In this document: positions 352 to 46,532 of the stretch, in pieces | How the letters are laid out: every line of letters begins with the position of its first letter | Position numbering within the stretch: the stretch's first letter is position 1 | Assembly: GCA_012032275.1 (NCBI GenBank) | Contig: JAAURK010000001.1 | Span: forward strand, 1 to 56,477 | Direction: 5' to 3' | DNA: 56,477 nucleotides | Source: Tabrizicola sp. | GTDB lineage: Bacteria > Pseudomonadota > Alphaproteobacteria > Rhodobacterales > Rhodobacteraceae | Program-made: the position numbers and the translations under genes | The notes under the pieces: model-generated | What the model saw: only the letters and a program-made list of their open reading frames with translations | What the model was told of the DNA's origin: nothing | Database searches by the model: none

Positions 352-1329
352 TCACAGACACAGTATCTCCGCCACCCCGCGGCGCCCGCCCTGCCGCGAA
401 AGCTGCACAACCAGATCGACGCTTCCCTCGCAGTACCGCTTCACCTCCTCGAACCCCATGCCCAGCCCTGCGGCCATGACCATAATCGCCAACCGATCAA
501 TGGCCTTCCGTGCGGTGTCGGCATGAATGGTTGTGAACGACCCGCCGTGCCCGGTGTTGATCGCTTCGAGGAAGGTCCGGCTTTCCTCGCCGCGCAACTC
601 GCCCAGGATAATTCGATCCGGTCGCATCCGAAGGGAGGCTTCCAGCAATCGTGCAGGTGTCCGTTCGCCTTGGCTGCTGCGATCCGCCTTGAGTGCCACT
701 GCGTTCTCCTGGCGGGGGAAGAGTTCATAGGCGTCCTCGATGGTCAAAATCCGCTCCCCCGGGTCCAACATCGACAAAAGCGACCGCGCGAAGGTCGTCT
801 TGCCAGTCGAGGTGCCGCCAGAAATCAGGATGTTCATGCGCTCTTCGACACAAAGCCGCATGGCCTCGACGACCTGCCCGGCTTCGGCCAGCCTCATCGC
901 CTCCTCTGCCCTTTCCCGACGCTTGGCGTCGAGATCGACGAGACCACCATATAAGAGGCGCGGCTCGATCAGCTGATCGGCCGAAACCTTGAATGGCCGG
1001 AACGTGATCGCCATCCCGCCTTCCACGATGGGCGGCGCCACAACTTGCGCCCGGATCGCCATGTCGCCCCAGACGATCTTTCCGGAGACGGTCGGCTTTT
1101 TCTCCGAGAACTGTACGCCGACCGCCGAAGCAATGGCCTGGCCAAGGTTGGTCGACAGGACCCGATCGATCGACAGATGCGCGACCCGCTCCATGTGGGT
1201 CGCACCCTTGCGCTCAATCCAGACCTTTCCGTCCGGGTTGATCGCCACCTCCACCAGATCGTCCCGCATGAACAATGGTGCGACCGGTGTCAGGTAAGTC
1301 CCGAGGAAACTCGGCCGATCATCCATCAC
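352..1329 (-). CDS. virB11: Type IV secretion traffic ATPase VirB11
   Basis: 325-aa ORF with Walker A GGTSTGKTT. ATGA overlap with the upstream virB10. Last gene of a colinear virB block. Confidence 0.9.
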   Translation of the reverse strand: MMDDRPSFLGTYLTPVAPLFMRDDLVEVAINPDGKVWIERKGATHMERVAHLSIDRVLSTNLGQAIASAVGVQFSEKKPTVSGKIVWGDMAIRAQVVAPPIVEGGMAITFRPFKVSADQLIEPRLLYGGLVDLDAKRRERAEEAMRLAEAGQVVEAMRLCVEERMNILISGGTSTGKTTFARSLLSMLDPGERILTIEDAYELFPRQENAVALKADRSSQGERTPARLLEASLRMRPDRIILGELRGEESRTFLEAINTGHGGSFTTIHADTARKAIDRLAIMVMAAGLGMGFEEVKRYCEGSVDLVVQLSRQGGRRGVAEILCL

Positions 1330-2647
1330 CAGATTTCCAGATCACGGTCGACCATGACCGTGATCGCGGCCCCGGGGGCGACGGTGATGATCGGCGGCAG
1401 GCTGGTGTAGGCCTCGACCGCCGAGCCCATGGCCGCACTCAGGTCCTCGCCCATGCTCTCGGCGGTGTCGGAACTTATCTCGTCAGTGTATTTCGCGGCG
1501 GCGACGGCGGGGGCGGCTCCGAGAAGGGAGATGAGTGCAGCCGACCCGAACCGTGCGCCGAACCGGGTGTTGACCTTGCCGGTGATGCCGGAGCGACCTT
1601 GGGCATCGCCACCGAAGGCTTCCATCTGCACGGACTGCCCATCTGGTGTGACAAGCCGCGTCCAGGCAACAAGAATGCGAGCCTGCCCGATGGCCACTTC
1701 AGAGGAGTAGTCACCGAAGAGACGCGACCCGGCGGGGATCAGGATCTGGGCCTGATCGAAGGACCAGACCGGCCGGGTCACGATCGCTGTAATCTGACCT
1801 GGCAGGCTCGAGTCGACCGCATTCTCAAGCGTGGCTTCGATCATCGTGCCTTGGAGGACTGTGTTTGACGGATTGGCGATCACTTGACTCACTTCCGTGG
1901 TGGTGGCTTCGCGCCCCGACTGCACGAAATCCCGTCCCGCCGCATCTCGACCCTCGGCTGGGGCCTCAGGCATCCCCATTCCGGCATCCTCTGCCCCACC
2001 CTTTTGACCATTGTCGAAGACGACCGAAGGTGACGCCACGCGGGCCGCAAGCTGAGCCTCGCGCTCGGCACGTTTGGCGGCAACTCAGCCTCCCGTTGGG
2101 CTTCCGCGGCACCCGCAGTGTCAGCGCTTGCCTTCAGGACGGCGATCTCCTGATCGAACTGCCGCCGCATGTCTTCCATGAGAGCGAGGGTTTGCGACTG
2201 TGCCTCTTCGAGCGCGAGCGCCAGTTCCTTGGCTGTCTGGTCCTTCTCGGCATCGGCCCTGTCGGCAAGAACACCCAGCTCGCGCTGCAGCCGTTCGACC
2301 TCGGACTGGAGTGTCGCGTTCCGCGCTTCAAGATCTTCCCGCTGTGAGGCCAGTTCCCCTTCAATGTCGGAGAACCCATCGCTCGCGGGTTTCGCGTCCG
2401 GTCCGGGTTCGATGGCGCCGAAGGGCGAGCCGCCACCCTGATCCTGGAATTCCTCGACGGCGGAGGTTTCGACATCGGGGATGGCGCGGCTGGAAGGCCA
2501 GACCGTCCAGAGCGCGGCAAGGCTCGCCCCTGCCAGCAGCGCGCCCATGCCAAGTCGCTGCTGCCGGGTCATTTTCGGCTTGGGTCGCTCGACCTTATAG
2601 TCCGGCTCTGCGCCCTTCTGCGGATCGGTCATCTCGGGTTGCGCCAT
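1326..2647 (-). CDS. virB10: VirB10/TrbI core-complex protein, reading frame broken once near 2076-2086
   Basis: The N-terminal TM plus coiled-coil part lies in ORF 1889..2647. The conserved C-terminal beta-barrel part (QGTMIEATLENAVDSSLPGQI...) lies in ORF 1326..2039. By hand, ...AEAQREAEL then AAKRAEREAQLAARVASPSVVFDNG joins if one base is restored. Confidence 0.85.
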
Positions 2648-2648
2648 G

Positions 2649-3398
2649 TCAGAACTCCCATCCCTGGAGCTTGGCGAGCAGGGCTGGGTCGGTGGTCACG
2701 CCTCCGTCCACCCGCTCGATGCAAAGGACCTGCGTGCCGATCCGGATCGAATAGGCAGAGCGGAGCCCGGACACGCGGACGATGCTGCCGCGCGTGCCGG
2801 AGTTCAGCGTCACCTCGCGACCCGTCGCATCGACGCCGAAGATCGAAGGCCGAAGTCCTGGCGCGAAGGCGAAGTAGGTCGCTTGCCCGTCGTTCCAGAT
2901 ATGGACGGGTTTCAGGGTCTTATCGCCCGACCAGGCATAGCCGATGTCGCGCGTCCCGGCGGCCGCCGTGCTGCGGGCCGAGCGGCTCGTGCCGGTCTCA
3001 GGATAGCGCAGGACCAGGCGGTAGGTCGGGTTGCGGGACCGGCCCTCGCTGATCGACAGCGAGATCGTGCGACGCCCCGTGTAGATCATCATGTTGGTCT
3101 CAGCCCCGGCGATCAGGGGTTTCACGGACACCGTGGTCCGATTCGAGAGCACCTCGACCTCGAAGGCTTCGCTGTCGCCGAGAAGGACGGAATCGATCCG
3201 CTCGCCCGCGCCCAGTTCGATGGCGGTGTTCACACGCAGATGCGTGTCGAGCCGGACGACATCGACGGGGTTATAAAGGACCGACCGGACACGGGCATCC
3301 GCGCCCATCGACGCGGGAGCAACTTCGGCGATGGCAGCACTTGCGACGCCAAGGGCGCAGGCGAAGGCAAGTCCCGGGAGAAGGATGGAGCGGGTCAT
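2649..3398 (-). CDS. virB9: VirB9 outer-membrane core protein
   Basis: 249 aa with a signal peptide. Sits between virB8 and virB10, with an ATGA overlap with the virB8 stop. Confidence 0.85.
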   Translation of the reverse strand: MTRSILLPGLAFACALGVASAAIAEVAPASMGADARVRSVLYNPVDVVRLDTHLRVNTAIELGAGERIDSVLLGDSEAFEVEVLSNRTTVSVKPLIAGAETNMMIYTGRRTISLSISEGRSRNPTYRLVLRYPETGTSRSARSTAAAGTRDIGYAWSGDKTLKPVHIWNDGQATYFAFAPGLRPSIFGVDATGREVTLNSGTRGSIVRVSGLRSAYSIRIGTQVLCIERVDGGVTTDPALLAKLQGWEF

Positions 3399-4087
3399 GG
3401 GTTGGTCTCCAGGGTTTCGGCGTCGACGCGGTAGGCCGAGACGGTGAAGCCGAGCGGGTTTTCCCAGACATGGGCGAGGGAGCGCTCGGTCTTCGGCTCG
3501 AAGGCGAACTCGACCGTGGCGACGAAGGGTTGGGTCACCGGCTCCTGCTTCGTCTTGCGTAGGGTTTTCAGGAAGCGGATCTGGGCGATGTCTCGCGAGA
3601 GGAAGGTGATCCGGCGCACAGTCACTGTGACTTCTGCGCCTGGCCCATAGACATCGGGTGGATAGGCCGTGTTTCCCCCGCCTTTCGACCAGAGAAGCCG
3701 CAGGCTTTCCTCCGCGCCCCCTGTGGAGCGGCGCTGCACGCTCTCAAGCCGGGCCTGAATGCCGGCCAGAAAATAGCCCTCGCGGTCGGAGACGTAAGCT
3801 ACGAGGAGGCTTTGCTTTAGAGCTTCCTGATCCTCGATCCCGGTCGGGGCGACCTGCAGGATGTTTTCGGCGTCCCCGGTCTGGCGGTCGACGAGGACGG
3901 TGAAGACCTGGGTTTCCCGCAAGGGCAGGACGAGGACCAGCGCGGTTGCAAGGATCAGGCTCAACCCGCCTGCGGCATTCGCGACGATCCAGGCACGCCG
4001 GGCCGAGAGGCGGGGCTCCAGAACGAGATCGACATCAAATCCATGCGCCTCCATGGGCGGTTCTCCACTTCTCGAATTCTGGGGCAT
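3395..4087 (-). CDS. virB8: VirB8 bitopic inner-membrane protein
   Basis: The conserved part starts at MPQNSRSGEPPMEAHG (ATG at 4087). It has one TM helix followed by a periplasmic domain. The longer ORF to 4312 is an Arg-rich upstream extension. Confidence 0.8.
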   Translation of the reverse strand: MPQNSRSGEPPMEAHGFDVDLVLEPRLSARRAWIVANAAGGLSLILATALVLVLPLRETQVFTVLVDRQTGDAENILQVAPTGIEDQEALKQSLLVAYVSDREGYFLAGIQARLESVQRRSTGGAEESLRLLWSKGGGNTAYPPDVYGPGAEVTVTVRRITFLSRDIAQIRFLKTLRKTKQEPVTQPFVATVEFAFEPKTERSLAHVWENPLGFTVSAYRVDAETLETNP

Positions 4088-4169
4088 CAGCTTTTGTCCG
4101 GTGTCCGGCTGGCGAGCCGCATTGCGGTCTGCACCGCGGACCGCCCGATCTGTCCGGCGGTATTGCCGT

Positions 4170-5105
4170 TCAGGCGCGCATCCGATGGACGCGGCCGCCA
4201 GCATCCAATCCAGCCGCTCCCCGGACCGCGCCGATCCCGGACGCGATGCCGGTGCGCCCGTATCCCTTGGCGCTGTCCGCTGTGCGGAAGGTCGAGGCTG
4301 CGACACTGCCAAGACCGGTCGCGGTCGACGCGAGCGACTGCGCGATCGTCGGCACCATGGCCATAAGGCCGGTGCCGAGCATCATGACGACCACGAAGCT
4401 CAGGACATCGCCGATGGTTTCCACCGAGGCGAGGGAGGCAGGTGTCAGGTCCTCCGCGATGTAGATCGTGAAGGCCGCCATGCCGGACGTCAGCATCGGA
4501 TAAAGAGCAAAGCCGAGGGCAAGGTTCACCCACCGGTCAAAGAGCGGGGCGGTGACTTTGAAAAGTGTGCAGCCTATTGCGACGGGCGCGAAGATGACGA
4601 GGACGCCGATCATGATCTTCGCGGCAGAGATCACGATGATCGACACGGTCGCCATGAGGGCCGCGACGAGGAACATCAGGAGGCCCGCAAGGGCACCGGT
4701 GATGTAGCTGCCATTCTGGCTTATCGCTTGACCCACATCGAGAGCTTGCAGGTAAAGGGCATCCAGGCCGTCGTAGAGATTGCCCGAACCATCCCCGAAG
4801 GCGTTCATCACCACCGCACCGATTTCACTCGGGGCATTGGTCAGGACACCGTAGACCGCATTGAAGTTGGTCCAGGACGACAAGAAGGCCGAGGCAACCG
4901 CGATCCGCACCATCAGACCGAGCCCGTTGCGCAGGGTCATCGGAACGGCCTGCGCCATCAGGTTGATCCCGACCAGAGCCACCACCAAGACCGACCCGAC
5001 CCGGAAGACCGGCACGATCTCGGCGGCCACGGCATCAAATGCGGTGGCGCCAACCGCTGTTGCAGCGGCATCGACCTGGGTCAGGATGTCGGCAATGATG
5101 GCCAT
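4170..5105 (-). CDS. virB6: VirB6/TrbL polytopic membrane protein
   Basis: 311 aa with multiple hydrophobic helices. Canonical position between virB5/eex and virB8. Confidence 0.75.
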   Translation of the reverse strand: MAIIADILTQVDAAATAVGATAFDAVAAEIVPVFRVGSVLVVALVGINLMAQAVPMTLRNGLGLMVRIAVASAFLSSWTNFNAVYGVLTNAPSEIGAVVMNAFGDGSGNLYDGLDALYLQALDVGQAISQNGSYITGALAGLLMFLVAALMATVSIIVISAAKIMIGVLVIFAPVAIGCTLFKVTAPLFDRWVNLALGFALYPMLTSGMAAFTIYIAEDLTPASLASVETIGDVLSFVVVMMLGTGLMAMVPTIAQSLASTATGLGSVAASTFRTADSAKGYGRTGIASGIGAVRGAAGLDAGGRVHRMRA

Positions 5106-5108
5106 CGA

Positions 5109-5615
5109 TCACTTGGCCCGGCAACTTTGCTCGAGATCGCGAAACCGCGCTTCGGTCGCGCGCCGATCTTCATTGCGGATGCGTTCCAGTGCTGGACGGT
5201 CTGCATCGGTCAGTTCCGATGCTGACTTGCCCATCTCGGTCTTTATGAAGGCATCGAAGGTGAAGCCCTCGAAGAGGCAAGCACAGGAGCCTTCTTCAAG
5301 CCGCCGCGACATGGCCACGCGGAAGTAGGCCTGCCGAGCCACTGCGCGGAACTTCCAATCGGTGATCCCATCGGGCAGATCGATCACCTCTTCGCAGGCA
5401 GGCCTGTCTGCGGCGGCAAAGATCCCGGTCCCGCGACGCTGCATTTCGGTCAGGAGGTCCAGCGCGGCCTCCGCATCCTGCGCCACCACCGCTTCCCGGG
5501 TTCTTTCGGCCAGCTGCGCGTTGCTGAAAGAGGCGAGGTCATCCGCCGCCGCGACGTTGGCGATGCAGACCAAGGCAATAACTACCGCAACCCGGTAAGA
5601 GGCCCGCACCATCAT
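5109..5615 (-). CDS. Secreted 168-aa protein in the eex (entry-exclusion) position
   Basis: Starts MMVRASYRVAVVIALVCIANVAAADD (signal peptide, weak lipobox ALVC). ATGA overlap with the virB5 stop. Sits between virB5 and virB6, as eex does in pKM101-type loci. Confidence 0.5.
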   Translation of the reverse strand: MMVRASYRVAVVIALVCIANVAAADDLASFSNAQLAERTREAVVAQDAEAALDLLTEMQRRGTGIFAAADRPACEEVIDLPDGITDWKFRAVARQAYFRVAMSRRLEEGSCACLFEGFTFDAFIKTEMGKSASELTDADRPALERIRNEDRRATEARFRDLEQSCRAK

Positions 5616-6420
5616 TCGGCTCCCGAATAGTCGAAAAAGCTCTTTTCCTTGGCCTGTTCTGCGGCCCAGTTCACGCCCGTCTGACCTGCGGCGAGCCCCG
5701 CAGCCGCGTTCAGCCGCCACATCTGTCCGAGCATGTAGTTGGTCTCGGCCGCCATCCGCGTGTTGAGGTCGATGCTTTCTTTGAGCGTGTCCTGGTTGGC
5801 GATCTCTTCGACAAGGCCGTCGATCCGCGCGAGGCTTTGGGCGGCTTCCTCGTAGGAGAGCTGCGCCACGCCCATGGCCGTTGCACTGGTGGCCGCGGTC
5901 GTCGCGATGAGCTTGTCCTGCGGATTGGTGGAGGAGGACAAGCCGGCAAGGGTTTCCGAGGTCAGCCCGGCGCCTTCCAGCGTGTCGCGCATATATTCGG
6001 CGGCCATCTTGTCGCCCATGGTCACGTCGACATCGAGCAGGTTGTCCAGAAGCCCATCGAAGTCCCCGATGGTCAGTGCATCCTGGAAACCGGAGAGATC
6101 GGTGATCTTGGCTGCCCGCGAGCGCAGGTCCTCCACCGAATTGTAAAGGCTTGCGATCTCGTTCAGGCCCGAGATCGACCCGAGTATGCCTTCGAGGTTG
6201 GTCAGCTGCTCGAGACCGGTCTCGACCTGCTTCTTCAACTCTTCGATCTGCGCAATCTGGTTTCGGCATCGCGAAGTGCCGCCTGCAACTGCTCGATGTT
6301 CTTGGCAAGGTTGGTGCCGTCGATGACGGGCACGCCTTGCGCCAGAAGAGGTGATGCCAGAAGCGATGCACAGACGGCGAGCGCGAGACGCGCCCTCGTT
6401 CGAAGGACGAAAGGTCTCAC
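5612..6420 (-). CDS. virB5: VirB5 minor pilin/adhesin-like protein, frame broken near 6257-6264
   Basis: GTG start at 6420 overlaps the upstream stop (GTGA). The signal peptide plus LLAQGVPVIDGTNLAKNIEQLQAALRDAE lies in the frame of ORF 6235..6696. The rest (NQIAQIEELKKQVE...FFDYSGAE) lies in ORF 5612..6502. The junction is at an AAA run. Confidence 0.7.
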
Positions 6421-7519
6421 GGAGTGTACTCCCAGAAGGTGGTGTATTGCAGGGATTGCGCGGCGTCTGAGAGCCCGCGGGCCGCCTCGACCTTGACGGC
6501 ACCGGCGCGCAGCCGAAGCGTCAGGGCCATGAGGCGCGCGCGCTCGGCGAGCATATAAGTGTTCTGATCCACCGCTTCTTTCGGGGTCTGGGGCTTGGCT
6601 TCTTCCAGGAACCCCTTGATCCGGGCCATGGCCGCCTCGATCTGCCCCGACTGCTGGCCGGAATAGCCGATGAAGGCCGAGGACATATTGCCCCATTCCG
6701 CACTGGCGCCGTCCACCCCCGCCAACGTGCCCGTCACGTCCGCGCCGGTGATCACCGAAAGATAGGCGTCGTAGTAGCCCGAAATCCGGCGGACGTAGTT
6801 CTGGGTTTCTTCAAAGGGCGGGATGCCGCCATATTTCTGGACGTTGCCCGGGCGGCGTTATAGGCCGCAAGCGCGAAGTCGATCCGACCGAAGCTGTTGA
6901 GCTGTGTCGCGAGATAGCGTGCGCCGCCATCGAGGTTCTGCAGCGGATCGGTCGGATCGACGCCGAGATCGGCGGCAGTGCCGGGCATCAACTGGCAAAA
7001 GCCCATGGCTCCGACCGGGCTGATCGCCGCGTTGGAGAACCCGCTTTCCTGTTTCACCAGCGACTGGAAGAGAATGCGCCAGGTTGTGGGCGTGAGCCCG
7101 ACCTTCAAGACGCCGGGGTGTGTTTCATAGCGCGCCGCCGTGGCGATGATCATCGCCTCCACCGTCTCGCCTTCACCGAAGAGCCGCTGGCTTTCCGGGC
7201 TTGTCTCCTCAAGCGGATAGACCTCGTCGGCATCAGGAAAGGCTCCCGCCCCCGTCTCGAAGCCGCTGAGATCGGTCACGCCAGTCGTATCCGCGAGGAA
7301 GCGTTCATAAGCGGCCAACTGGTCGTCTTCGATCTCGCTGAGTTCCGTGCGCGTGGCGAGTTTCTCCCCCTGCTTCACCGCGTCCTCAGCCTGTTCGACA
7401 AGTCGTGAGATGAAGTTCGACAGCCGCGAGCCGTCGATGATCGGCACGCCTTGGGCCAGGAGGCCCATGGGCAGAGCAGTGCCGAGCAGAAGCCCGAGAA
7501 GAAGGGGGCCGCGACGCAT
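6417..7519 (-). CDS. VirB5-like / SLT lytic transglycosylase chimera, frame broken near 6850-6856
   Basis: The N-terminus MRRGPLLLG...[14 protein letters not shown] and the VTDLSGF motif are paralogous to VirB5. The SLT core reads [26 protein letters not shown]...AAYNA. Restoring one base gives [33 protein letters not shown], which runs into ORF 6417..6755. Confidence 0.75.
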
Positions 7520-7527
7520 GCGGTGGC

Positions 7528-7734
7528 TCAGTTCGCGCAAGGTGCGTCGGGCGCGTTCATCGTCGAGACGACGACCGTCGTGCCGTCACTTTGCTCCCGC
7601 GCCGCGAAATACTTGCCCTCGGCTCTGAACTGACCATGACAGGGGGAAACGGCCCCCGTTTCGACGCCAGCACAGGCGGAGAGGAGGGTGAGCCCGAGAA
7701 GGGAAAGGGGGATTGGGCGGTTGCGTCGGGTCAC
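7528..7734 (-). CDS. VirB7-like small lipoprotein
   Basis: 68 aa with lipobox LLSAC. ATGA overlap with the virB4 stop. Confidence 0.55.
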
Positions 7735-10108
7735 GTCATGTCCTTCCAGAAATCGGGGGTATCGCGCCAGCCATAGGGGGCGCGGTCTTCGCCGGATCGG
7801 CCACCGCCAAGAACGGCAAGTGCAGGTCCGAGGGCGGTGAGGTCCATGTTCACGAAGACCGAGTCCCCGGCCGAGCGCAGGAGGGCGAGGCGCAGGCCAC
7901 CTGTCGGCGTACAGAGGAACTCGGCCTCTTTCTCGTTCAGCCGCAGGATCCGGTAATCCTCGGGGTTGGCGCGCGGGTTCGGATAGAGAAGCTGGGTCAC
8001 CACGCTTTCCGCGATGATCTGGCCGACCTTGACCCGTGTCAGATGCGTCGGTGTCTGGGTCAGCATCATTACCACGGCGTTCTTCTTCCGCATGGTGACA
8101 AGCCAGTCATGCAGGCGCTTCTCGAAGATCGCATCGTCGAGCATCTTCCAGGCCTCATCGATGACGATGAGGGTCGGACGGCGATCCTCGATCACTCGCT
8201 CGATGCGGCGGAAGAGGTAGGCCAAAAGCGCCGAGCGTTCGGTCCCGAGATCGAGGATTTCCGACATGTCGATGCCGACCACATCTTCGGACAGGCTGAT
8301 CTGGGATGTGGCCCCGGGCCCAAAGAGCCAGCCATGCCGGCCCCCCTGCCCCCATTCCCGGACCCGGCCCACCAAGTCGCCCTCGTCGTCGGTCGAGGCG
8401 ACGAGGGTTGCTAGGCCATCAAACGTCCGAAGGCGCGGATCGGCCGAAACGATCTGACGAACGGCAGCGTTCAGGCTGACGGTTTGGGCGGTCTCGAAGG
8501 GGCGCGACCCTGCAAGGATGTCACCGAGCCAGTCGGTGAGCCAGGCCGCCCCGCGCTCATCGGTCTCGGTCTGGAACGGATTGAGGCCGGTCGCCTCGCC
8601 GATCCGGATCGCGGAATAGCCGCCGCCCAAGGCGCGGACGGCCATCTCGAGGCCCCGGTCCTTGTCGATGACGAGGACTCGGGCATGCACCCGCCGGGCC
8701 TGCGCCATCAGAAAGGCCGTGCCGAGGGTCTTGCCCGACCCCGTCCGGCCCAGCACCAGCGTGTGGCCGGCACTCGGCTCGGCACCCCGCTCGCCCTTGT
8801 CGTGGAAATTGAAGCGATAGAGGCTTGAGGTGACCGTCGGCAGCGCCGTGATGGTCTCGCCCCAGGGCGACTGCACCTTGGAGCGACCTTCTGTCACCCG
8901 GTGGAGTGCTGCGAGATGGGCGAAGTTCTGGGCGGACAGAAGTGCTGTGCGCGGTCGGTAGGCCCAGTTGCCCGGGGCTTGGCCAAACCAGGCCGCGCGG
9001 GCGGCAAAGCTCTCACGCACCAGAGTCGCCCCGCAATCTTGCCCGGCGCGCCAGACCTCTGAGGCCGCTACCTCCAGCTGTTCCGGGCTGTCGGCCGTAA
9101 CCATGACCGTCAGGTGATGTTTGCCGAAGACCTGTCGGCCCGAGGCGACATTGTCCGCAGCCTCATAAAGCTCTTCGCGCAGGGTTTCGGCGGCATCTTC
9201 CGAGGCGCGCATCTGGCGTGCCGTGCGCTTGATGCGCTCTTCGATTTCGTTGTTCCGCGCGGGGGTGAAGCTGTTGGTGATGACGATGTCGTAGGGCAGT
9301 TCCAGCGCGTCGAGCATCCGCGCCCAAGTGCGGGCCGGATAGGATTTCACGCCGAAGATCGTCCCGAAACGCTGCCCGGCGCTGGTATCGATCTCCACCC
9401 GCTTGCCGGCAAAGGTTAACTGTGTTGACGCGACGGCCTCGGCAAGAAACTGGCCGCGCATCGGCAGGACCTTGGCCATCGGCTGGCCAAGTACGACGCC
9501 CATAAGGCCGAGCCATTCCCCGGAGGAAACGGTCAGCCGCCGGAAGCCCAGACCCTGGCAGGCCCCGGCCAGAAGCCCCATTGCTTCATTCAGGCGTTCG
9601 ATCCTCTGGCCAAGATCGCCGGTGAAGGCCGCCTTGAAGAGTGCACCGATCAATGGGGCTCGCTTCAGCGCAGTGGGGCGGAGGATAAGGGACACCACCA
9701 GAACCCGGCGTTTCAGGGTGCGGGCACGGAGATGTTCTTGCCAGCGGGTATCGACCATGGCCGCAAACGCGGCCCCAGTGCCCTCACCATCGAAGGGCTT
9801 CAGCTGGGGCGCGTCCGGCAGGGTCAGCTTGGAGACATGGAACCCGAAGCCTTCGCCCAACTGGCCGATCAGCCGCGCAAGCGAGGTGGTCACGAGCGAG
9901 AGGTCCCCTCTTCCGTCGTGAAACTGTCCTGCCCCTCGACCACGGCCGAGGCGATCAGATCACCCTGTCGGGTCAGGATCAGATTGTCCGCAGGTGCGGA
10001 CAGCCAGGGCAAGTGCCTGGCGAGGGTCTCGGCTGCGAGATCCTCGGGCCTCAAGACAGATCGAAGCGCCGGGTTGGCCGCGAAGAGGGATTTGAGGTCA
10101 GCTGACAT
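7731..10108 (-). CDS. virB4: VirB4 ATPase, frame broken near 9905-9908
   Basis: The 720-aa ORF carries Walker A GRTGSGKT. The missing N-terminal ~70 aa (MSADLKSLF...VVEGQDSFTTEEG) are in ORF 9890..10207. Restoring one G in a GGGG run gives TTEEGDLSLVTTSLARLIG. The corrected length is ~792 aa, typical for VirB4. Confidence 0.9.
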
Positions 10109-10382
10109 GGCGATCTCCGCCAAAAGCTGACTTGCCCCGTGTGCGCGGGGTCCGGGAGAAGACCACCGCGACCGTCTCGAAGAGGTTCGGGTTGCGGTCT
10201 GCCACAAACCACAGGACCGGATAGCCGATGATGCCGATCAGCAGAAACCGCCAATCGTTGGCGCCCACGAAGGGAATGACCGAGCCCAGCATCAGGCTCA
10301 CGAAATAGCCGATGGGCAGGCCGAAGATCTTCGGCGGCCGGGTGAGGCCGAGAAACAGGGGCGCGTCATGCATGGAGAACAT
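10098..10382 (-). CDS. virB3: VirB3 small membrane protein
   Basis: 94 aa with LFLGLTRPPKIFGLP and two TM segments. Directly upstream of, and overlapping, virB4. Confidence 0.75.
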   Translation of the reverse strand: MFSMHDAPLFLGLTRPPKIFGLPIGYFVSLMLGSVIPFVGANDWRFLLIGIIGYPVLWFVADRNPNLFETVAVVFSRTPRTRGKSAFGGDRHVS

Positions 10383-10438
10383 CCGGGGGCTGGCCAGGCC
10401 GGGTGTGCGATGCCACCTGGCCTGTCGCCAGTCCCGCC

Positions 10439-10752
10439 TCAGGGGGCCGCAAAGCCGTCGATGATGGTCGCGGCCGAGAAGACGAGGACCACACCGAAGA
10501 AGATCGCAAGAAAGAGGGGCCAGTTCAGACGACCGGTGAACATCATGTAGCCGGCAGCGACGACGGCGAGGATGGCGATCAGCCGCCCGATCGGCCGGTC
10601 AGCCCGTCCACCACGACCTGCAGCATGTTTTCCAGGGGGTCGAGGTTCTGCGCGAGGGCAGGTTCTGCGAGGATTGCCGCGAAAGGCAGCGCCAGCAAAA
10701 GGGTGTGAAAAGCCAGGCGCGGCAATAGCGCGCCAAAAAGACTGCGGAACAT
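10439..10752 (-). CDS. virB2: VirB2 pilin, frame broken near 10589-10598 (absent from the ORF track)
   Basis: Hand translation gives MFRSLFGALLPRLAFHTLLLALPFAAILAEPALAQNLDPLENMLQVVVDGLTG. After restoring one C it continues PIGRLIAILAVVAAGYMMFTGRLNWPLFLAIFFGVVLVFSAATIIDGFAAP*. This is a long leader plus two hydrophobic helices. Confidence 0.65.
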
Positions 10753-10757
10753 GGGAG

Positions 10758-11468
10758 TTACTCCGAACTGAGGGTTGCGTTGGTCAGCCGCAGAACCTTG
10801 GCCACATGGCCCACGGTTTCGGCGTAAGGGGGAATGCCGCCGTACTCACGGACCGCTTCGGGTCCGGCGTTGTAGGCGGCGAGAGCAAGATCGGCGGCGG
10901 CGAAGTCCTCAAGCTGTGCGAGGAGATAGCGGGCCGAGCCGTGAAGGTTGTCTTCCGGATCATGGGGGTCGACGCCGAGGAGATTGGCGGTTCCGGGCAT
11001 CAACTGCCCAAGACCGATGGCGCCGACCGATGAGCGCGCATCCGGATTGAAGGCGGATTCTACAGCGATATTGGCCCGGAAGAGCGCAAGCCATTCCGTC
11101 CCGGAGAGACCCGCCGCCTTCAGCGCTGGATGGCGGAGGTAGTCGTCGCCGACATCAAGAACTAGGTCCTCGATCTCGGCCGTGCCATGCGGACCCCTGC
11201 CCGTCTGGGTCGTGCCATAGGACGCAATAACAACGAGACTGTTCTCAGCGGCATCGGTCGCAACACCATCTGTGAACTCGACGCCGTTCAGATCGCCGCG
11301 CTTGGGAAGCTCTTTGCCAAAATCGAGAACGCTGGCCCGAACCCGCAGGTCCTCTGTGCCGGCCCCAAGGTCGATGACCTCGGCCACGGCACCTTGAACA
11401 GCGATGAGCCAAAGCGCCAGCCCTGCGCCGAGGGTCAGATCAGGGAATGGGCTCCACTGCTGCGTCAT
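10758..11468 (-). CDS. virB1: VirB1-like lytic transglycosylase
   Basis: SLT motifs [26 protein letters not shown] and [19 protein letters not shown]. First conserved gene of the block. Confidence 0.8.
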
Positions 11469-11760
11469 GGGTCCAGATCGCCTTCTCGCCCTTCTTCAAA
11501 GGAACAGGGACCGTGGTCAGACCCAACTCGACCGCGAAGGAGATGAGACCGGTCACGGTCTTGAACTCCCGGGGTTCGAGCCCGCGCGAGATCACCAGAA
11601 GGGCTGTCTGGTCGCCAAGGCGCAATTGGATGCGCCAGGTGCCTTGCCAGACATTGAGAACCTTCTTTGCGTCCTCGACACAGAGGGCTTCGACGATGCC
11701 GCCTTCGGTCAGGGCCTCCTTAAGTCCGGCCTGCAAGATCACCGGGGTCAAGTTCCTCAT
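11440..11760 (-). CDS. Hypothetical 106-aa protein at the head of the virB operon
   Basis: ATG at 11760 ([17 protein letters not shown]...). Overlaps the virB1 start by 29 nt. No motif recognised. Confidence 0.4.
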
Positions 11761-11928
11761 GGGTTGGCACCTTCCGAAAGCAACACGCTCACGGCAGAAC
11801 ATAGTGCATGTTGCGCTGATGAGAAACATGTCGTCGCACAACATGGCGCTCACCTATCGGTAGAATCCTGTTGCGTCAATAGCGGTGTTTTGCAATTCAT
11901 GCACATGTTTTGAAACCCCGGACCGTGC

Positions 11929-12231
11929 ATGCCCCTTCTCCGCTCCAGACGCGCTCGCCTTGTCGTCACCACCCTGCTCAAGATGCTTGTCTGCGGCGTC
12001 GCTCAGGGTGCGACGGCGTTGGACTGCCTGCCGCCGGTCCCGCCTGCACCAGTGACCGATGCTGCCACGCGTGCGGAATATCGCACGGAGATCGGGCAGG
12101 AGTTCACGGCCTATTTCGATGAGGCACAGGCCTATCTGCGCTGTCTCGATGCTGCGCGTGCCGAGGTGTCCGAAGAGATCAACCGCGCGATCCACGACTA
12201 CCAGGCTCTAGGCCAAGACCCGGACGGCTGA
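11929..12231 (+). CDS. Small secreted hypothetical protein
   Basis: 100 aa with a signal peptide and possible lipobox (LKMLVCG). Divergent from the virB operon. Confidence 0.4.
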   Translation: MPLLRSRRARLVVTTLLKMLVCGVAQGATALDCLPPVPPAPVTDAATRAEYRTEIGQEFTAYFDEAQAYLRCLDAARAEVSEEINRAIHDYQALGQDPDG

Positions 12232-13992: not shown

Positions 13993-14531
13993 AGACAAGT
14001 TCGAAGCAGAAGGATGCCTTGGCACCGCGCGCCAGTACCTCAGGGCACCTAACCCGCTTTCACCGAAGGAAATCTAGCTTAGGATGAGGGTAGCAGCGAG
14101 CACTTGAGTCTGATCCCGGATACTAGAAATCGCGGTAATCTTCCAGAATGCCGTACGCAAGACTGGACCGATTGCAAAAGCCGGTTGGACGCATTTCCAG
14201 AAGAGCTGATCTGCCGAGAAGACGGACCTGCATCTACGCCGGGGTTCAATCGACCAATGCTCGAGGGGTCGCGACGCATTCCCCAGCAGTCGAATACTAT
14301 GCGGGCGTCGAGTTTCGTGGTCTCTCCGCTCCCAAGGTTCGGCTACGGGCGGAGCGTACCGGGCGCAGGATCCAGCCGGGCTGACGACTTTGTGGGGGCC
14401 AATGTTGGCACGGCTAAAGAGAGCCTGCGCACAGGCCCGCTGGCGCAGCTGCAGGACAATTCTCTGGCCACACGCGCCACTGCCCGCGCCGCGCATGGCT
14501 GGATCATGGACATCTACCTGATCCGGAAGAC

Positions 14532-15578
14532 CTAAGGTCGCCGCGCCATCATCCAGATAAAGAACAGCCCGCCCACAAGGCCGGTAACCACGCCGATCGG
14601 CATGTCTTCGGGGGCGACAGCTACCCGCGCCAGCGCGTCGGCCCAGATCAGGAACACCGCCCCCGCCAGTGCCGAGGCCGGCAGGACGCGCGCGTTGTCG
14701 CCGCCCACAAGCAGCCGCACCAGATGCGGCATCATCAGGCCGACAAAACCGATGATCCCGGAAAAAGCGACCATCACCCCGGTAATCAGGGCGCAGACCA
14801 CAAAGACCGTCAGACGAAACCGGCCGACTTCGATCCCGAGGCTCGCCGCCGTCTCGTCCCCAAGGCTCATAGCGTTCAGCCGCCCGGCCTGGGCCCAAAG
14901 CCACAGCCCGCAAGGCACCAGCACGGCGAGCGGCCAAATCAGATGGCTCCACTGCGCAAGGCCAAGCCCGCCCAGCATCCAGAAGACCACCGTATGGGTG
15001 GCGCGCGGATCACCGAGGAAGATCAGGATGTTGGCCCCCGCCATGATGACAAAGCTGACGGCAACTCCGGCCAGCACCAGCCGGTCGGCGCTGCTTGCGC
15101 CGGCCAGTCTGGCGACCCCGAGGACCAGCAGTGTTGCCAGCAGCGCCCCGCCGAAGGCCATCAGCGGGACGGTGAGCAGGCCCAGAAACATGCCTGTGTG
15201 CAGAAGGGCCGCAATCGCACCAAAGGCCCCGCCCGACGAGATGCCCAGAAGATGCGGATCGGCCAGCGGGTTGCGTGTCACCGATTGCAGCGCCGCGCCC
15301 ACAAGGCCGAGCCCCGCGCCCACGAGGCCCGCCAGGATCACCCGGGGAAAGCGGATTTCCCAGACGATGTTCTCGCGCCCCAGGCTCCAATCCGCCTCCA
15401 CCAGCCCTGGTACAAGTCGGTTGAGCGCGATGCCCCAGACCGTCCCGGATGGGATCGCCACCGCCCCGACAGACACCGCCAGCACGATCGACAGGACAAC
15501 CACGGCGCCCGCAAGAAGCGCGATGGCTGTGCCGGTACCGATCCTACGCGCCAGGTTGAGGGCGGTGACATCGGTCAT
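14532..15578 (-). CDS. FecCD/BtuC-family ABC permease
   Basis: 348 aa, polytopic, with typical FecCD family features. Confidence 0.9.
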   Translation of the reverse strand: MTDVTALNLARRIGTGTAIALLAGAVVVLSIVLAVSVGAVAIPSGTVWGIALNRLVPGLVEADWSLGRENIVWEIRFPRVILAGLVGAGLGLVGAALQSVTRNPLADPHLLGISSGGAFGAIAALLHTGMFLGLLTVPLMAFGGALLATLLVLGVARLAGASSADRLVLAGVAVSFVIMAGANILIFLGDPRATHTVVFWMLGGLGLAQWSHLIWPLAVLVPCGLWLWAQAGRLNAMSLGDETAASLGIEVGRFRLTVFVVCALITGVMVAFSGIIGFVGLMMPHLVRLLVGGDNARVLPASALAGAVFLIWADALARVAVAPEDMPIGVVTGLVGGLFFIWMMARRP

Positions 15579-15581
15579 GGA

Positions 15582-19346: not shown

Positions 19347-19992
19347 TGGTGCTTGCTTCGCACTCCCGCAGCCGGGCAGTCTGGGCGACGCGGTCGGATC
19401 GGGCCGAAGACCTTGCCCGCATCCAGCATAGGGGGATTGCCGCGGCGATCTGGCATCGCACCCGCGACCCGGGCTTTGCCGGCTGGATCGACGCCCTTTC
19501 GCCGGACCAGCTTCCGCGACTGCGCGCGCTTGTCGCGTGCCCGCCGTGGAAAACGCCATGCAGGCCGCCTGTGAGGCCGCCAGTCTGCCTCCGTCGCCTT
19601 GGCGGGACATGCTGGCGGGCGACTGTGCGGCGCTGGCCGTCCTCTTCGGCGACATCATGGCGACGCCGCTGGTTCAGCTTCGGCTGGATGTCATCCAGAC
19701 GGATGCCTGCAAGCGCTTCCACCTCGACCGCGTGCCCGCGCGGCTTCTCTGCACCTATCGCGGGCGGGGAACCGAGTTCGGGCCTGCGACACCAGAGGGC
19801 GGCGTGACCCGCATCTCGCCCCTCGCGACCGGCGAGGCCGCGCTCTTCCGCGGAAGCCTCTGGCCTACCGAGGATTGCGGGCTTCTGCACCGGTCACCAC
19901 CCATCGCAGGCACGGGAGAGACGCGACTTCTCCTGGTCATCGATGTGCCAGAGGATGACGAAGACGACTGCGGCTGCGGCCAGCCGCACTGA
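19346..19992 (+). CDS. DUF1826-like protein, frame broken near 19533-19538
   Basis: TGATG coupling to the COG0523 gene. The N-terminal part is in ORF 19343..19807 up to LPRLRALVA. It continues VPAVENAMQAACE... in ORF 19537..19992. The family call is from memory. Confidence 0.5.
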
Positions 19993-21308: not shown

Positions 21309-22335
21309 CAGCCCGCCCCCAATGGTGCCCAAAGGACGCCGCCTTGTTCATCGGCCGCCAAGAGCCAGCCGGTAAGTGGCGTCACCGCCAGCAGGGTTAC
21401 CGGCGCACCGGACGGGCGTTTGACCGCGCGGGGTTCGGCGATCTGGTCGATCTCGGAGAAGATCACCGCGCCCGAGGAATAGCCCGCCAGCACCGCCTCA
21501 TGCCCCGGCAGGCGCAGATCGCGGTGACATAGCCGCGCCCGCCCCAGGCCACTTGCATCGGGCCGCGACCCATCGGGCCTTGCGCCCCGTCAAAGGGCCA
21601 CAGTATCGCCTCATCCGCGCCGGTGGTCGCAAGCCAGGGTAGTTTCCCAGCCCAAGCCCAGCCCTTGACCTTGGTCGGATAGCCCGACATCCGCAGATCG
21701 GCCTTGTCGCGCAGCCGCCAGCCGTGCAGGGCATTTTCCTGCATGCGGCTCATGACAAAACGATCATCGGGGCTGAAGCTGACAGCGGTGTGGCTGCCCG
21801 CCCATTTGAGGGCCGTGGGTTTCCAGCCGCGCTTTTCCCGCGCCCAGATCGTGACACCGCCGTAATGCGCCACCGCCAGCCGCCCGCCCTTTCGGTCAAA
21901 GGCCAACCCGCCCACGGTGGAGGGGGCTGCAAGCCGTTCTTGCCTGGCGCCGTCCCAGAGAAACACCTCACGCCCGACAGAACAGGCAAAGACCCCGCCC
22001 GCGCCCGCCGCGACATGGTCGACCCATTTGCGGGGGTGGCTGGCGATCTCGGTCACGCCCTCGGGACCGACGCGGCAAAAGCGGCCATCGTCGCCGCCCG
22101 TCAGGAACGTCCCGGACGATTCCGCCACCATTGACAGGATCGCGCCCTTGTGGACGGGCAAGGCCTCATGTTCCGCGCCGGGGCGGAAGACGCGCACATG
22201 CCCGTCGCCCCATGCGGTAAAGGCGGTGTCACCCACCGTCGCCACCGCCACGGGCACAGCATCAAAGTCATACTTGCGCCCGCCCTTCTCAATACGGGTG
22301 GGCGCAAGCGGATCGGGCCGCTCCAAGACCGGCAT
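21308..22335 (-). CDS. Cytoplasmic WD40/beta-propeller repeat protein, frame broken near 21517-21526
   Basis: Repeated GDGHVRVF, GGDDGRF and LHGWRL type blades, with no signal peptide. ORF 21463..22335 continues as RDLRLPGHEAVLAGYSSGAVIF in ORF 21308..21493. Confidence 0.75.
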
Positions 22336-24221: not shown

Positions 24222-25251
24222 TGTGCCAGTGCCCCGGTCAGTTGCCCCAGATTGTAGCGCATCATGGTAAGGTAGGTGCCCGCCGGACCATCCGCCGCCG
24301 ACAGCGCATCGGAATAAAGCGTGCCGCCGATCTTGGCCCCCGTCTCGGCCGCGATCTGGTCAAGCAGGCGGCGGTCAGCGATGTTTTCGACAAAGACCGC
24401 CGAAATGCCCGCCTCCCTGATCTGGGTGATGAGGGCGGCCACGTCCTGTGCCGATGCCTCGGCCTCGGTCGAGACACCCTGCGGGGCGACGAAGGTCAGG
24501 CCATAGGCGGCGGCGAAGTAGCCGAAGGCGTCATGCGAGGTCACAACGGTGCGGCGGTTTTCCGGCAGGGCGGCGACGGCGGCGCGAATCTCGGCATCCA
24601 GCGTGTCCAACTCGGCCAGATAGGCGGCAGCGTTGGCCTTGTAGACCTCGGCACCCTCTGGATCGGCGGCGGCAAGACCGCGTTCGATGTTGCCGACATA
24701 AAGCGCCACATTGGTCACGCTTTGCCAAGCATGCGGGTCTCGGCCCCGTGGTCGTGGCCTTCGTGGTCATGGTCGTGGCCAGCTTCCTCTGCGGCATGAT
24801 CGTGGCCGGCCTCTTCCTTGGCATGGTCGTGCGCCTCGCCCTCGGCATGTTCGTGGTCATGGTCATGGTCGTGCGCCTCGCCTTCGGCGTGGTCGTGCTC
24901 TTCTTCACCAAAGGCGATGGGCGTCACGCCTTCGGACGCGTTGATGAGCATGGCCTTGGTGCCCGATGCCTCGACCAGCCGGTCCATCCAGCCTTCGAAC
25001 CCCAGCCCGTTGGCGACGATCACCTGCGCCCCCGCAACCGCCTGCGCATCGGCGGGAGAGGGTTGGAAGACATGGGCGTCGCCATCAGGGCCGACCAGCG
25101 TGGTCACCTCGACCCGGTCACCGCCGACATTTTCAACGATGTCGCCAAGGATCGAGAAGGTGGCGATGACATTCAGCTTGTCCTGCGCAAAGGCTGGGGC
25201 GGCGAAGGCCAATGCTGCGGCAGAGGCGAGGAGGAGGCGGCGGGTTATCAT
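24218..25251 (-). CDS. znuA: Zinc ABC transporter substrate-binding protein ZnuA, frame broken near 24738-24748
   Basis: Signal peptide, then a very long His/Asp/Glu loop (EEEHDHAEGEAHDHDHDHEHAEGEAHDH...). After restoring one base it continues DPHAWQSVTNVALYVGNIE in ORF 24218..24718. Confidence 0.85.
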
Positions 25252-33158: not shown

Positions 33159-34576
33159 TCAGCTGAGCGCGCGCTTCAAGGGCGGCACAGCTGACAGGAC
33201 CAGAAGGTCAAGCACGATCACGGCCAGCAGCGTCAGGCCCAGCATCGGAAAGGCCAGCGACATGGCAAGCGTGATGAGAAGCGCACCCTTGGCATAAGGA
33301 ATGTCCTCGGGCCGTGGCGGTGCCCCAAGACGCGTTCCAGAGGGGCGGCGTTTCACCCACATCACCACGCCCGAGACTGACACCAGCATCAGTGACAGGC
33401 AAAAGAGCGTGTTCAGCGCCAGGTTCCACGCCCCAAGGTCGCCCTCGTGGAACGCGATCCCCCAGGCCATGGCCTTGGCATAGACCGAGTAATCGGCATA
33501 GCGCACATCCGCCAGCACATTGCCGGTGAACTGGTCAATGTGGATCGTGCGGTCTGCCGATGGGCTTGGCCCGTCGTTCGACATGCTGTCATGGCTGATG
33601 GTCCAGACGCCCGTGTCATCGCCCGGCAAGTTCAACTGATAGCGCCGGTCAAAGCCCAGGGTTCCGGCAAAGGCCGTCACGCTGTCGATGGTCACCGGCC
33701 CGGTGACTGCCGCCGTTCCCGCCAGCGAACCAGACTCCGGCATTGGCGTCTGTTCCAGCGTCCAGGGCACTTCTTTCGCAGCGCCGTGGTTCATCTCGGC
33801 ATGGGTGGCATCCGACAGGGGCACTGCATCCCATTTTTCTGCCGGAAAGGTGTTCCAGGCCTGCACGAACTTGGCCCCCCAGAGGCCCGCCCAACTGAGG
33901 CCCGAGATCAGGAAGATCACCAGCACCACGCTGACCCACATCCCTACCGCGCCGTGCAAGGATTTCCAGAAAGCGCGGCCTTTCGCGCCCGCCTGCAACG
34001 TCAGGCTTTTTCCCCAGGTCGCCCCGTTGCGGGGCCAGTGCAGGTAGATGCCCGTTACGGTCAGCAGCAGCGCCAGACTTGCCGCCGCCTCGATCAGCCA
34101 GTCGCCGGTGTTGCCGATCAGGAGGGTGCCGTGGATGTCGGTGGCAAAGTCGTACCAACTGCGCGCCAGGGGAAGGTCTCGACCACCTCAGCCGTGTAGG
34201 GGTTGATGGTCACGCCGGTCGTGTCCTCGCCGACCTTCACGGCAAAGGCTGCGACCCGGCCCTCGCCCATCGGCGAGATGTATTGCGTGGCCACCCCGCC
34301 CGGCACGGCGGCTTCGGCGGCGGCCTGCAACTGGCTGACGGGCAGAAGGGTTTCGCCGACCGTGACATAGGCCCGCTCGCCGTTCAGCTCGGTGACGGAA
34401 CTGACCCACAGCATGATGAGGCCGGTGATCGCCAGCATCAGCAGGAAGGGGATGACGTAAAGCCCGGCGTAGAAGTGCCAACGCCAGGCTGCGAAATACA
34501 GGCGGTTGACAGCGCGCGGGGCGCGGTCTTCGGCCAGTTCGGGGTCTGCGACAAGGGTCATCTGATCGGTCCTCAA
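33159..34576 (-). CDS. PepSY-domain/PepSY-TM membrane protein (PiuB-like), frame broken near 34158-34166
   Basis: ORF 34118..34576 ends ...ETFPWRA. Restoring one base gives SWYDFATDIHGTLLIGNTGDWLIEAAASLALLL..., which runs into ORF 33159..33998. Confidence 0.75.
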
Positions 34577-36225: not shown

Positions 36226-36243
36226 TGCGTCAGCGCATCGAGA

Positions 36244-42145: not shown

Positions 42146-42224
42146 GCCAGGCTTTTACCAAACCGCCATGGGCTACGCCTCTGGAAAGAGCTGTCTGAGT
42201 CATCCTGCCGCAGGGCTGAACGGC

Positions 42225-42949: not shown

Positions 42950-43064
42950 ACTGCGCTCCCGATGGACTCCCACTGACACCTCCCGTGCAAATCTCCGCAC
43001 GGGCCGCATCGCAGCTTACGGATTCAACAGGAAGGTGGGGTCAGGACAGCGCTTACGGCGCAAT

Positions 43065-43275
43065 CCGGGCATACGCAGCTTTCTCGACTGATCTCATCGA
43101 CCTGGTCGAAAAGCATTTGCCTTCGGATCTGTTCGAAAATCTTCTTCCTGTCTTCAAGGCGCAGCCCGATCCCGTCTGGACAGGTCACCCTGTAGGCTCG
43201 AGAAACGCCGTCAAGCTGATGAGTGCGCTTGTCCCCATTATCGAAGGTCGTTTCGACCGTAATCCGAACTTCCAT
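43065..43275 (-). pseudogene. ISKra4-like transposase N-terminal fragment, split by the IS66 insertion
   Basis: MEVRITVETTFDNGDKRTHQL...LFDQVDEISRESCVCPDC. It continues on the far side of IS66 (40480-40582) as ...LSRARSGYALWSGSGQSRARRLRCSC after a frame change. The family call is from memory. Confidence 0.4.
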
Positions 43276-43363
43276 GGCAGCCCCCTGACAAAGAGCTCAA
43301 CCTAGCACAGGCTAGATCACCGACGGCGACCCCCATGTCTTGTCCACTTCCCGGCCTGATCCG

Positions 43364-46300
43364 TCAGCGAATCGACTTCCGCTGGCGGATCGACTTACGG
43401 GGTCGAAAGACGCAGCGGAGTATCAGGCAACGAACGTTCTGGCCGACCGCATCCGAGCGGGTCTTCTTGCGGCGCGAAAGCGTCAGCACGAACAGCTGGG
43501 GCGTGAAAGCGTAAGCCAGGACCACCGACAGTGCGACACCACCCGCAACGGCCATCGCGAACGGTGGCCAGAACCCGCCTCCGCCGACGATGAGCGGCAG
43601 AAAGCCGCCAACTGTTGTTATGGTGGTGGAAACGATGTGCCGTGCGGATCCGGCTATCACATCGACCATCGCTGTCCTGTCGCCTCTGGCTGCACGCGGG
43701 TCCTCTTGCAAAGCGGACAATACGATCAGGGCCGCGTTGAGCGACACACCGATTGAACCCGTGACCCCGATGATTGCATTGATTCCGAATGGATAATTGA
43801 AAGCCGCAAGGGACAGGATCGACATACCCGCTGAAAGGCCTGCAACGGTCAGGGCGATCAGGGTCAGCCGGAAGGAATTGAAAGTCAGAAATACTACGGT
43901 AATCGACAGCGTGATGATGAGGCCGAGCGGAGCCACCAGCGCTTGAACGGTGCTTTTGCGCGCGTCGGAATCGCCCCCGGTTTCAAGCCGGATGCCTTCT
44001 GGCAGCCTGTATCCACTTCGCTGCAGCGCTTCCATCGCTTGCGAAAGCCCCACGGCAGGCAGGACGCCAGGGGCAAGAAAGGCCTGCACCGTGTTGACCC
44101 TTTGACCATTGCGCCGCGTTATCGTGCTGGCTGAAGGTTCCAGCCGCAAGGCACCAAGGGTGGACAGCGGCACTGCGGGCCACGCCCCGGATGCGGACAG
44201 CTCTGCAGCATCTGGCGGCAGGACGGGCATGTCACCTATGGCCACCGGATCTTCGCGCAGCCCGGCGCCCAAGCGCACGCGCACGGGCAGTTCCTCGGTT
44301 CCTTCCAGCAACGAACCACCGGTGACACCTTCCAGACCGGCCTCCATCTGTCTGGCGATCTGGCCAAGATCCAGCCCCACAAGGCGCGCCTGAACCTCAT
44401 CGACCTGCAGGGTCAATTTTGGCGTCCCGCCAGACACACCGGTGCGGACCAGCGCCACGGACGCTACCGCCGCCAGACGGGCACGCAGGTCTTCCCCGGC
44501 GAGTCGCAGGCGTCGACATCCTGCCCGACAAGGCGCAGTTCGATCGGCGCATTGACTGGGGGTCCCTGCACCAATCCTCGCACCACGAAGCGCACCTGCG
44601 GAAAAACCGATGACAGGTCAGCCTGAAGCCGGGCAAGCAAGGCCTCGGTCGCAGCGGGCGACTCTGTCCGGATCAACGCCTGCGCAAAGCCCGGAGCCTG
44701 ATCACGGCCGCCGACCATATTGTAGTAGAACGCCGGGGCAGAGCGGCCGATCACCCATGCCACATCGACAATTCCGTCCTCTTGCGAAAGATGCGTGTCG
44801 ATACGCTGGACGACACGCAAGGTCTCGTCGATCACGGTGCCGGGTGGAAGGTCAATTTCAATGTAGAACTGATCGCGGTCGACGCCGGGAAAAAACTGCG
44901 GCGTCAATCCGGGCAGCGACAGGAAACCCAGCACCGGCAGCACCAGTGCCACGGCAACGGTGCGCAGCGGGTTGTTCAGCGACAAGCCAAGCAACAATCG
45001 AAAGCGGCCCATGATGGCACCGATGCGGATGGGTACAGCGCCATTGCCCTGCCGCAACCAGCGACCCGCGAGGGCAGGTGTGATCGTGACGGCGACAATG
45101 AATGACCAGAACAGCATCACGATGACCGCGACCGCGATCGAGCCGACAAAATCACCCACCGGGCCAGGCAGCAGTACAAGCGGCAGGAAGGACAGGATCG
45201 TCGTGACTGTCGATGCAGCCAATGGCATCGTCAGGCGTCGCACAGCACCGGCAACCGCCGTCAGCCGATCAATCCCTGCGCGGAGACGATTGCCGACTTC
45301 ATCGGTCATCACGATGGCCGCGTCGACCAGAAGGCCCAGGGCCACGATCAGGCCGGTGACACTCATCTGATGAATCGGAACGGCAAGGGCGTTCAAGGTC
45401 GCCACCGACGCAAGCGACACCACCGGCAAGACCAGCGCGACGATCAGGGCGGACCGCCAGCCAAGTGTCACAAAGAGGACAGCGACAACCAGAAGAACTC
45501 CGACGAGCATGTTCACCCCGACTTCGACCAGCCGGTCACTGGTGTACCGGCTTTGGTCGAAGACGGTTTCGATGGACAGCCCCCACGGCAGTGCTTTTGA
45601 CTGCGCCGACACGGCATCGCGAACCGCGCTCATCCAGCGATCGACCTGCAATCCCGTGGCCAGCTTTGCCGAAACCAGAATAGCCGGTCGGCCTTGATAC
45701 AGCGCCGCCTCGACCAACGGAAGACGCGGTCCGCGCGTGATCTGCGCGACATCGCCGAGAAGCGCGACTTGCCCCGCGTCGTCTTCGCGCAGCACGACCT
45801 TACGGAGCCGATCGAGTGACGTGATTTCGCCTGTCAAACCGACAACGAGGTCGGTGCTGCCGCCACGCAGGCGGCCAGCCTGCACCTTGGCATCCGCCGA
45901 CCGGATCGCCGCGGATACCTCGTCCGCCGTCAGCCCCAAAGCCGCCGTCCGCGACGGGTCGAGCGTCACCAGCACCTCTTCGTCCGGCACACCGTAAAGA
46001 TCGACGAGCTGGGTCCCGGGAACGGCACGCAGCCGATCGGCGAGGGCCTCTGCTCGCGGGCCGCGCGGGTCAGGCTGAAATCTTCTGGCAGGCTCAGCGC
46101 AAATATCGCGGCATAACCACCACTGCCATCACTGTCGAATTCCGGCTCCAGGACACCCGCCGGAAACTCCCGTTTGGCATCAGACAAGGCATCGCGCACT
46201 TCGGACCAGACTTGTTCGATGCGGCCGGGCGGGACAGTTTCGATCAGCTCCACGGAGATCACCGATATGCCTGTCGCCGATGTTGACTGGATCACCTCGA

Positions 46301-46532
46301 TCTCGGAGATTTCACGAAGCTCCGTCTCGATCTTGACCGTGACCAGTGCTTCGACCCGTGCAGGATCGGCGCCCGGAAAAACGGTCGAGACGGTCGCAAA
46401 GATATTGGTGATGGTCGGGTCTTCCTGCCGACCGATGGAGACAAGGGCCGATAGACCGGCGGAAATCACCACCAGAAGGGCGAGCAGCACAAGCCGCGGC
46501 TGGCGGAAGAAAAGCGTGCCCAACCCCGTCAC
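43364..46532 (-). CDS. RND (AcrB-type) efflux permease, frame broken twice (near 46045-46052 and 44503-44514)
   Basis: Three consecutive ORFs (188, 508 and 364 aa) join as ...SLTRAAREQ/EALADRLRAVPGTQLVDLYGVPDEEV and ...LRLVGQDVDA/LRLAGEDLRARLAAVASVALVRTG. The corrected length is ~1056 aa. Confidence 0.85.

Follow-up and report, generated by a model that had tools for sequence, protein, structure and literature searches.

Single-base frame breaks in a plasmid-like contig of Tabrizicola sp. and throughout its draft genome are very probably consensus errors

The stretch of DNA analysed here (the window, 56,477 nucleotides (nt)) is the whole of contig JAAURK010000001.1 of the Tabrizicola sp. assembly GCA_012032275.1 (contig C73 in our numbering), the longest (56 kb) among the 391 contigs of a 3.95 Mb draft genome. 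It carries a virB-type type IV secretion system (T4SS), a zinc island, a copper cluster and an RND efflux pump, together with several insertion sequence (IS) elements (Table 1). At 13 sites of the window, conserved genes are broken by a single change of reading frame, in each case a net -1. An earlier note, made from the sequence alone, had listed 11 such breaks, all in the same direction, and every one of these was recovered when the window was aligned with intact orthologues. The list was correct as far as it went; however, it lacked the breaks in virB6 (~4191) and in a remnant of cobF (~14400). Most of its positions also stand, with the exception of the WD40 gene (given as 21517-21526, now 21505-21512) and the first break of the RND permease (given as 46045-46052, now 46056-46093). 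Similar breaks are found throughout the draft, including in genes that a cell cannot do without, and it is very probable that they are errors of the consensus sequence rather than mutations of the organism.

Table 1. Features and frame changes discussed in the text (positions are those of the window unless a contig is named; breaks are net changes of frame relative to intact orthologues)
Feature	Position	Strand	Change	Remark
virB-type T4SS	355-11468			
virB10 break	2077..2084	-	net -1 (frame -2 to -1)	reference residue 189/440; 1-base gap versus three plasmids
virB6 break	4190..4192	-	net -1 (frame -1 to -3)	residue 305/339, 34 codons before end
virB5 break	6260..6268	-	net -1 (frame -3 to -2)	gap in T run
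Lytic transglycosylase (SLT-domain) gene break	6851..6875	-	net -1 (frame -2 to -1)	
virB4 break	9905..9909	-	net -1 (frame -2 to -1)	residue 67/792
virB2 break	10592..10595	-	net -1 (frame -3 to -2)	residue 53/104
Window-unique insertion in A run	11775..11779		1-base insertion	intergenic; 17 nt upstream of small hypothetical gene
cobF remnant break	14398..14403	+	net -1	gap in G run versus assembly L004
Zur-type zinc island	14.5-29 kb			COG0523 GTPases and ZnuABC-like genes
DUF1826 gene break	19533..19538	+	net -1 (frame +2 to +1)	lost base outside any homopolymer
WD40 gene break	21505..21512	-	net -1 (frame -3 to -2)	
ZnuA-like metal-binding protein gene break	24733..24748	-	net -1 (frame -3 to -2)	beside His-rich loop
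Copper cluster	31-37 kb			CopCD, DUF1775, PepSY, MbnP, di-haem peroxidase
PepSY-domain gene break	34158..34181	-	net -1 (frame -2 to -1)	
RND pump, membrane fusion protein, TetR regulator	43.4-48.5 kb			
RND permease, second break	44503..44515	-	net -1 (frame -3 to -2)	
RND permease, first break	46056..46093	-	net -1 (frame -1 to -3)	
CoA-transferase, TctABC, LysR block	49.8-55 kb			
Truncated IS5-family (IS5/IS427-group) transposase gene	55612..55630	+	frame +2 to +1	A-rich site (GTGAAAAAGGGG)
IS630, IS66 and IS3 elements				also on the window contig
rpoB and rpoC	contig C64:4676-13153		all net -1	rpoB split once, rpoC twice

The breaks in the window were examined by comparing intact reference proteins with the DNA, both by tblastn and by frameshift-aware protein-to-DNA alignment. 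For the T4SS, the references were three complete Paracoccaceae plasmids (from Tabrizicola piscis, Fuscovulum ytuae and Neotabrizicola shimadae) whose DNA is ~90% identical to the window and in all of which the virB genes are annotated as intact, single coding sequences. The zinc island was compared with a Gemmobacter aquarius plasmid (84.5% identity), three further assemblies also covering it, and the PepSY gene with a protein from a Sagittula stellata plasmid (62-69% identity). Since the plasmid search gave only ~63% identical DNA for the RND region, protein orthologues from four relatives (G015, G017, G004 and G020) were used there; in all four the permease is a single open frame of 1048-1082 amino acids. 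By tblastn each affected gene appeared as two collinear pieces lying in different frames, which aligned end to end with the intact reference. Exactly one event per site was required by the frameshift-aware alignment, and all 13 share one direction (-2 to -1, -1 to -3 or -3 to -2 on the minus strand; +2 to +1 on the plus strand). The T4SS gene fragments retain 93-100% amino-acid identity to the references. As the earlier note had said of the flanking frames, internal stops were absent from the broken window genes, and the tblastn comparison with intact references revealed no larger deletions or IS insertions in them either. Without references the breaks could not be located, since a sliding frame plot of codon usage across the window proved too noisy.

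At the DNA level, a four-way alignment of the window with the three plasmids placed 1-base gaps unique to the window at ~2077, ~4190, ~6260, ~6851, ~9908 and ~10592, that is, at each of the breaks in the T4SS stretch. The site in the SLT-domain gene also carries several local substitutions. The insertion at ~11777 is the sole insertion-type difference in this stretch, and a two-base gap, also unique to the window, lies in a C-rich intergenic stretch at ~12262. At the WD40 site, one extra base is present in all four independent assemblies compared (L004, L055, L056 and L057); three of the four, a metagenome contig and two bins of Paracoccaceae, came from an exact-pattern scan. These pattern scans did not uncover a conspecific assembly, the matches at the WD40 site being relatives at 82-86% identity that bear the extra base; exact-pattern scans for the virB4 site returned no match in metagenome or genome collections.

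The extent of the phenomenon became apparent in a census of the whole draft, for which 800 kb of its nearest complete relative (G009, RpoB 89% identical) served as the reference. We picked 636 real genes of this relative by codon usage, 367 of which matched the draft at 50% identity or more, giving 129,209 aligned residues or ~388 kb of homologous coding DNA for frameshift-aware alignment. This alignment showed 52 frame changes, in 43 of the 367 genes (~12%), a rate of one in about 7.4 kb, with 41 of them net -1 and the other 11 net +1. By the NCBIfam names of the orthologues, the broken genes encode RpoB, RpoC, ArgS, TopA, ParE, SucA and SdhA, as well as PrfC, FolC, TldD, transketolase, CobN, malate synthase G and a gene transfer agent (GTA) baseplate protein. 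The draft rpoB has an open frame of 1162 codons, with the final ~230 codons in another frame, whereas, of the relatives with a match to the whole of rpoB, most have an open frame of 1369-1442 amino acids. When the search was reversed, with open reading frames (ORFs) of the draft run against the DNA of the relative, the only breaks to appear were mirror images of those in the draft itself; thus the method does not invent breaks, and the reference genome is clean. True nonsense codons are essentially absent from the census genes. Just 3 apparent internal stops turned up across the 129,209 aligned residues, each at the edge of an out-of-frame extension of a high-scoring segment pair (HSP). A count of 218 in-frame stops in tblastn HSPs was discarded because it stemmed from spurious query ORFs, read off-frame in this GC-rich genome; with the set of real genes, the 3 were what was left. 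Likewise, 8 apparent +1 events from a census based on HSPs alone, some of which are two nearby deletions (e.g. ~11825 on contig C3), were superseded by the frameshift-aware alignment.

The sequence context of the indels is informative. Aligning the orthologous loci of related replicons, as the earlier note had proposed, placed the missing bases mostly in short runs. About 11 clearly alignable deletions sit in runs of 2-6 identical bases, as measured in the relatives (virB6, virB5, virB4, virB2, virB10, WD40, cobF, rpoB and rpoC), against a background in which singletons make up 54% of the bases of the draft. Insertions have a different preference, 5 of 14 falling in G/C runs of at least five (five or six bases) compared with 1.3% of random positions. 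The deletion bias described in the earlier note holds as a majority (~4:1 genome-wide, 41 versus 11) and not as an absolute rule. That note had also held that insertions at similar rates elsewhere would weaken the argument; the 11 net +1 events go part of the way towards this, yet they do not overturn an origin in the consensus.

A cell with broken rpoB, rpoC, argS, topA and parE is not viable. Because indispensable genes are broken, and because real decay would not give indels alone, we consider it very probable that the breaks are single-base errors of the consensus and not lesions of the organism, a judgement made on sequence comparison. The features that an error of this kind should leave were found: single-base indels in otherwise conserved genes, a genome-wide distribution that includes indispensable single-copy genes, and indels unaccompanied by a matching load of nonsense codons. 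In such a scheme, the consensus caller would mostly have called one base too few, as a rule in a short run of identical bases, and less often one too many, chiefly in long G/C runs. These errors would be spread over the entire assembly, at a rate of roughly one per 5-7 kb, splitting about one gene in nine, and the window would simply take its share, with 13 breaks in 56 kb that fall in genes for conjugation, zinc, copper and efflux. These genes are themselves most likely intact in the cell, and we would expect the underlying reads to contradict the consensus, or to be ambiguous, at the break sites.

Several observations weigh against this interpretation. At the census rate, 7.6 breaks would be expected in the window and 1.6 in the 11.7 kb of the T4SS stretch (340-12000), but 13 (P = 0.048) and 6 (P = 0.006) are observed, the latter about four times the census rate. 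All 13 window breaks are deletions, compared with a genome-wide share of 79% (P = 0.046). In addition, the run lengths (after deletion) near the chromosomal -1 events barely exceed those of random positions (mean 2.64 versus 2.43), and two of the window deletions do not fit neatly, that of the DUF1826 gene lying outside a homopolymer and that of the SLT-domain gene in a locally rearranged stretch. The association of the indels with runs of identical bases was thus observed with DUF1826 as an exception and with a chromosomal -1 context only weakly above random. The census was, however, less sensitive than the analysis of the window, since it relied on more distant references and counted a break only when each flank had an HSP of 25 residues or more. 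Furthermore, the chromosomal contig C3 has 5 breaks in 8.3 kb, a local density equal to that of the T4SS stretch, and so error density may differ between contigs (e.g. with depth). The doubts raised by density and one-sidedness do not point away from an artefact.

The alternative that comes to mind for a plasmid-like element is genuine decay, in which real one-base deletions would have inactivated the T4SS, the ZnuA-like protein, the PepSY protein and the RND pump. Mobile elements do decay, the breaks are truly present in the deposited sequence, and the T4SS stretch is richer in them than the chromosomal average; but that richness is matched locally on C3, and lesions of the same type occur at similar density in rpoB, rpoC, argS, topA and parE, so that they are not confined to dispensable genes. 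The mixed spectrum of decay (nonsense codons, larger deletions, IS insertions) is missing from the broken genes, and conservation is not relaxed, both halves of the T4SS genes having 93-100% amino-acid identity with relatives whose DNA is ~90% identical, which argues for purifying selection up to the present. We regard such decay as very unlikely, and the preference of the earlier note for consensus error over independent pseudogenisation is supported by the genome-wide breaks, the essential genes among them, the near absence of nonsense codons and the clean reference genome. There is also a slim chance that some of the six virB T4SS breaks are real and lie atop a background of errors, with the conjugation system in early decay.

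Explanations in which the indels are real and yet tolerated fare even less well. If each site were recoded, by programmed -1 ribosomal frameshifting or by transcriptional slippage, the single direction of the changes in the window would be accounted for, and the IS5-family fragment does carry the sort of A-rich site that IS elements use. However, the 13 sites have neither a common slippery heptamer nor a long A/T run, and 11 events of opposite direction occur elsewhere in the genome. The orthologues examined all have one uninterrupted frame, and so the shift is not conserved, whereas programmed shifts are defined by their conservation (PMC3711429). Recoding on this scale is hardly credible. 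The position of the indels in runs of identical bases might instead suggest phase variation, or a population deficient in mismatch repair, with the assembly having caught a real mixture of run lengths. Contingency loci use long tracts, of ~7 or more units, whereas the runs at the breaks have 2-4 bases (6 in the cobF remnant) and a long tract is absent; nor can a viable majority population carry broken rpoB, rpoC and argS. We find this next to impossible, and an erroneous consensus is still the explanation that we prefer.

Errors of this type have been described. Those reported in connection with Kastor (PMC12007338) are likewise single-base indels that split conserved genes genome-wide and are detected via related references; gene-fragmenting draft errors there were mostly false deletions, tied to homopolymers of at least 2 bases (PMC12007338). 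The present draft differs in that its insertions lie in G/C runs of at least five bases, not in A/T contexts, and in that its 391 contigs, with a median of 7.9 kb, are unlike typical long-read assemblies. The long-read homopolymer origin proposed by the earlier note is one candidate among several; the sequence alone cannot name the platform, and a flow-based short-read data set or a low-coverage metagenome bin would fit the strong fragmentation at least as well. The draft (completeness 85.8%, contamination 2.3%, GC ~64%) is fragmented and of low quality, and is probably a metagenome bin. The breaks also resemble the singleton frame transitions of the GeneTack survey (PMC3711429), with homology on both sides of the transition and a lack of conservation in orthologues, and such non-conserved transitions were ascribed mainly to sequencing errors (PMC3711429), although the density here (~12% of genes) is far higher than is usual in finished genomes. 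Genuine frameshift pseudogenes, such as those of decaying plasmids and host-restricted bacteria, share with the present cases the splitting of conserved genes by one-base indels. Their decay, however, spares essential genes and brings nonsense codons, larger deletions and relaxed conservation, none of which is seen here.

The breaks themselves hold no new biology, but they serve as a quality flag. An annotation of this genome would flag about one in nine genes as split or pseudogenic, and an inactive T4SS, a loss of zinc uptake or a dead efflux pump would each be a wrong conclusion to draw from it. Counts of genes and pseudogenes are affected, as are estimates of completeness and the protein databases that absorbed the fragments.

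Some other features of the draft deserve mention. On C64, the genes upstream of rpoB and rpoC also have frame changes, at ~2041 and ~2515. In the window, the cobF remnant (14348-14532) comprises the last ~60 codons only (residues ~191-252) and lies beside iron/cobalamin ABC transporter genes; cobF is whole in the Gemmobacter aquarius plasmid, and the truncation, as opposed to the frame break, looks like a real one that arose by rearrangement. The frame change of the truncated IS5-family transposase gene could be a programmed -1 shift, which IS elements of this kind typically use, or another consensus deletion. By Pfam scans, the remaining large genes at 29-56 kb are of full length. Finally, an ORF of 306 amino acids (23301-24221, minus strand) lies between the gene of a COG0523 GTPase and that of the ZnuA-like protein; it falls in an alignment gap relative to a "Rhodobacter maris" bin (L056) and may be an extra gene here.

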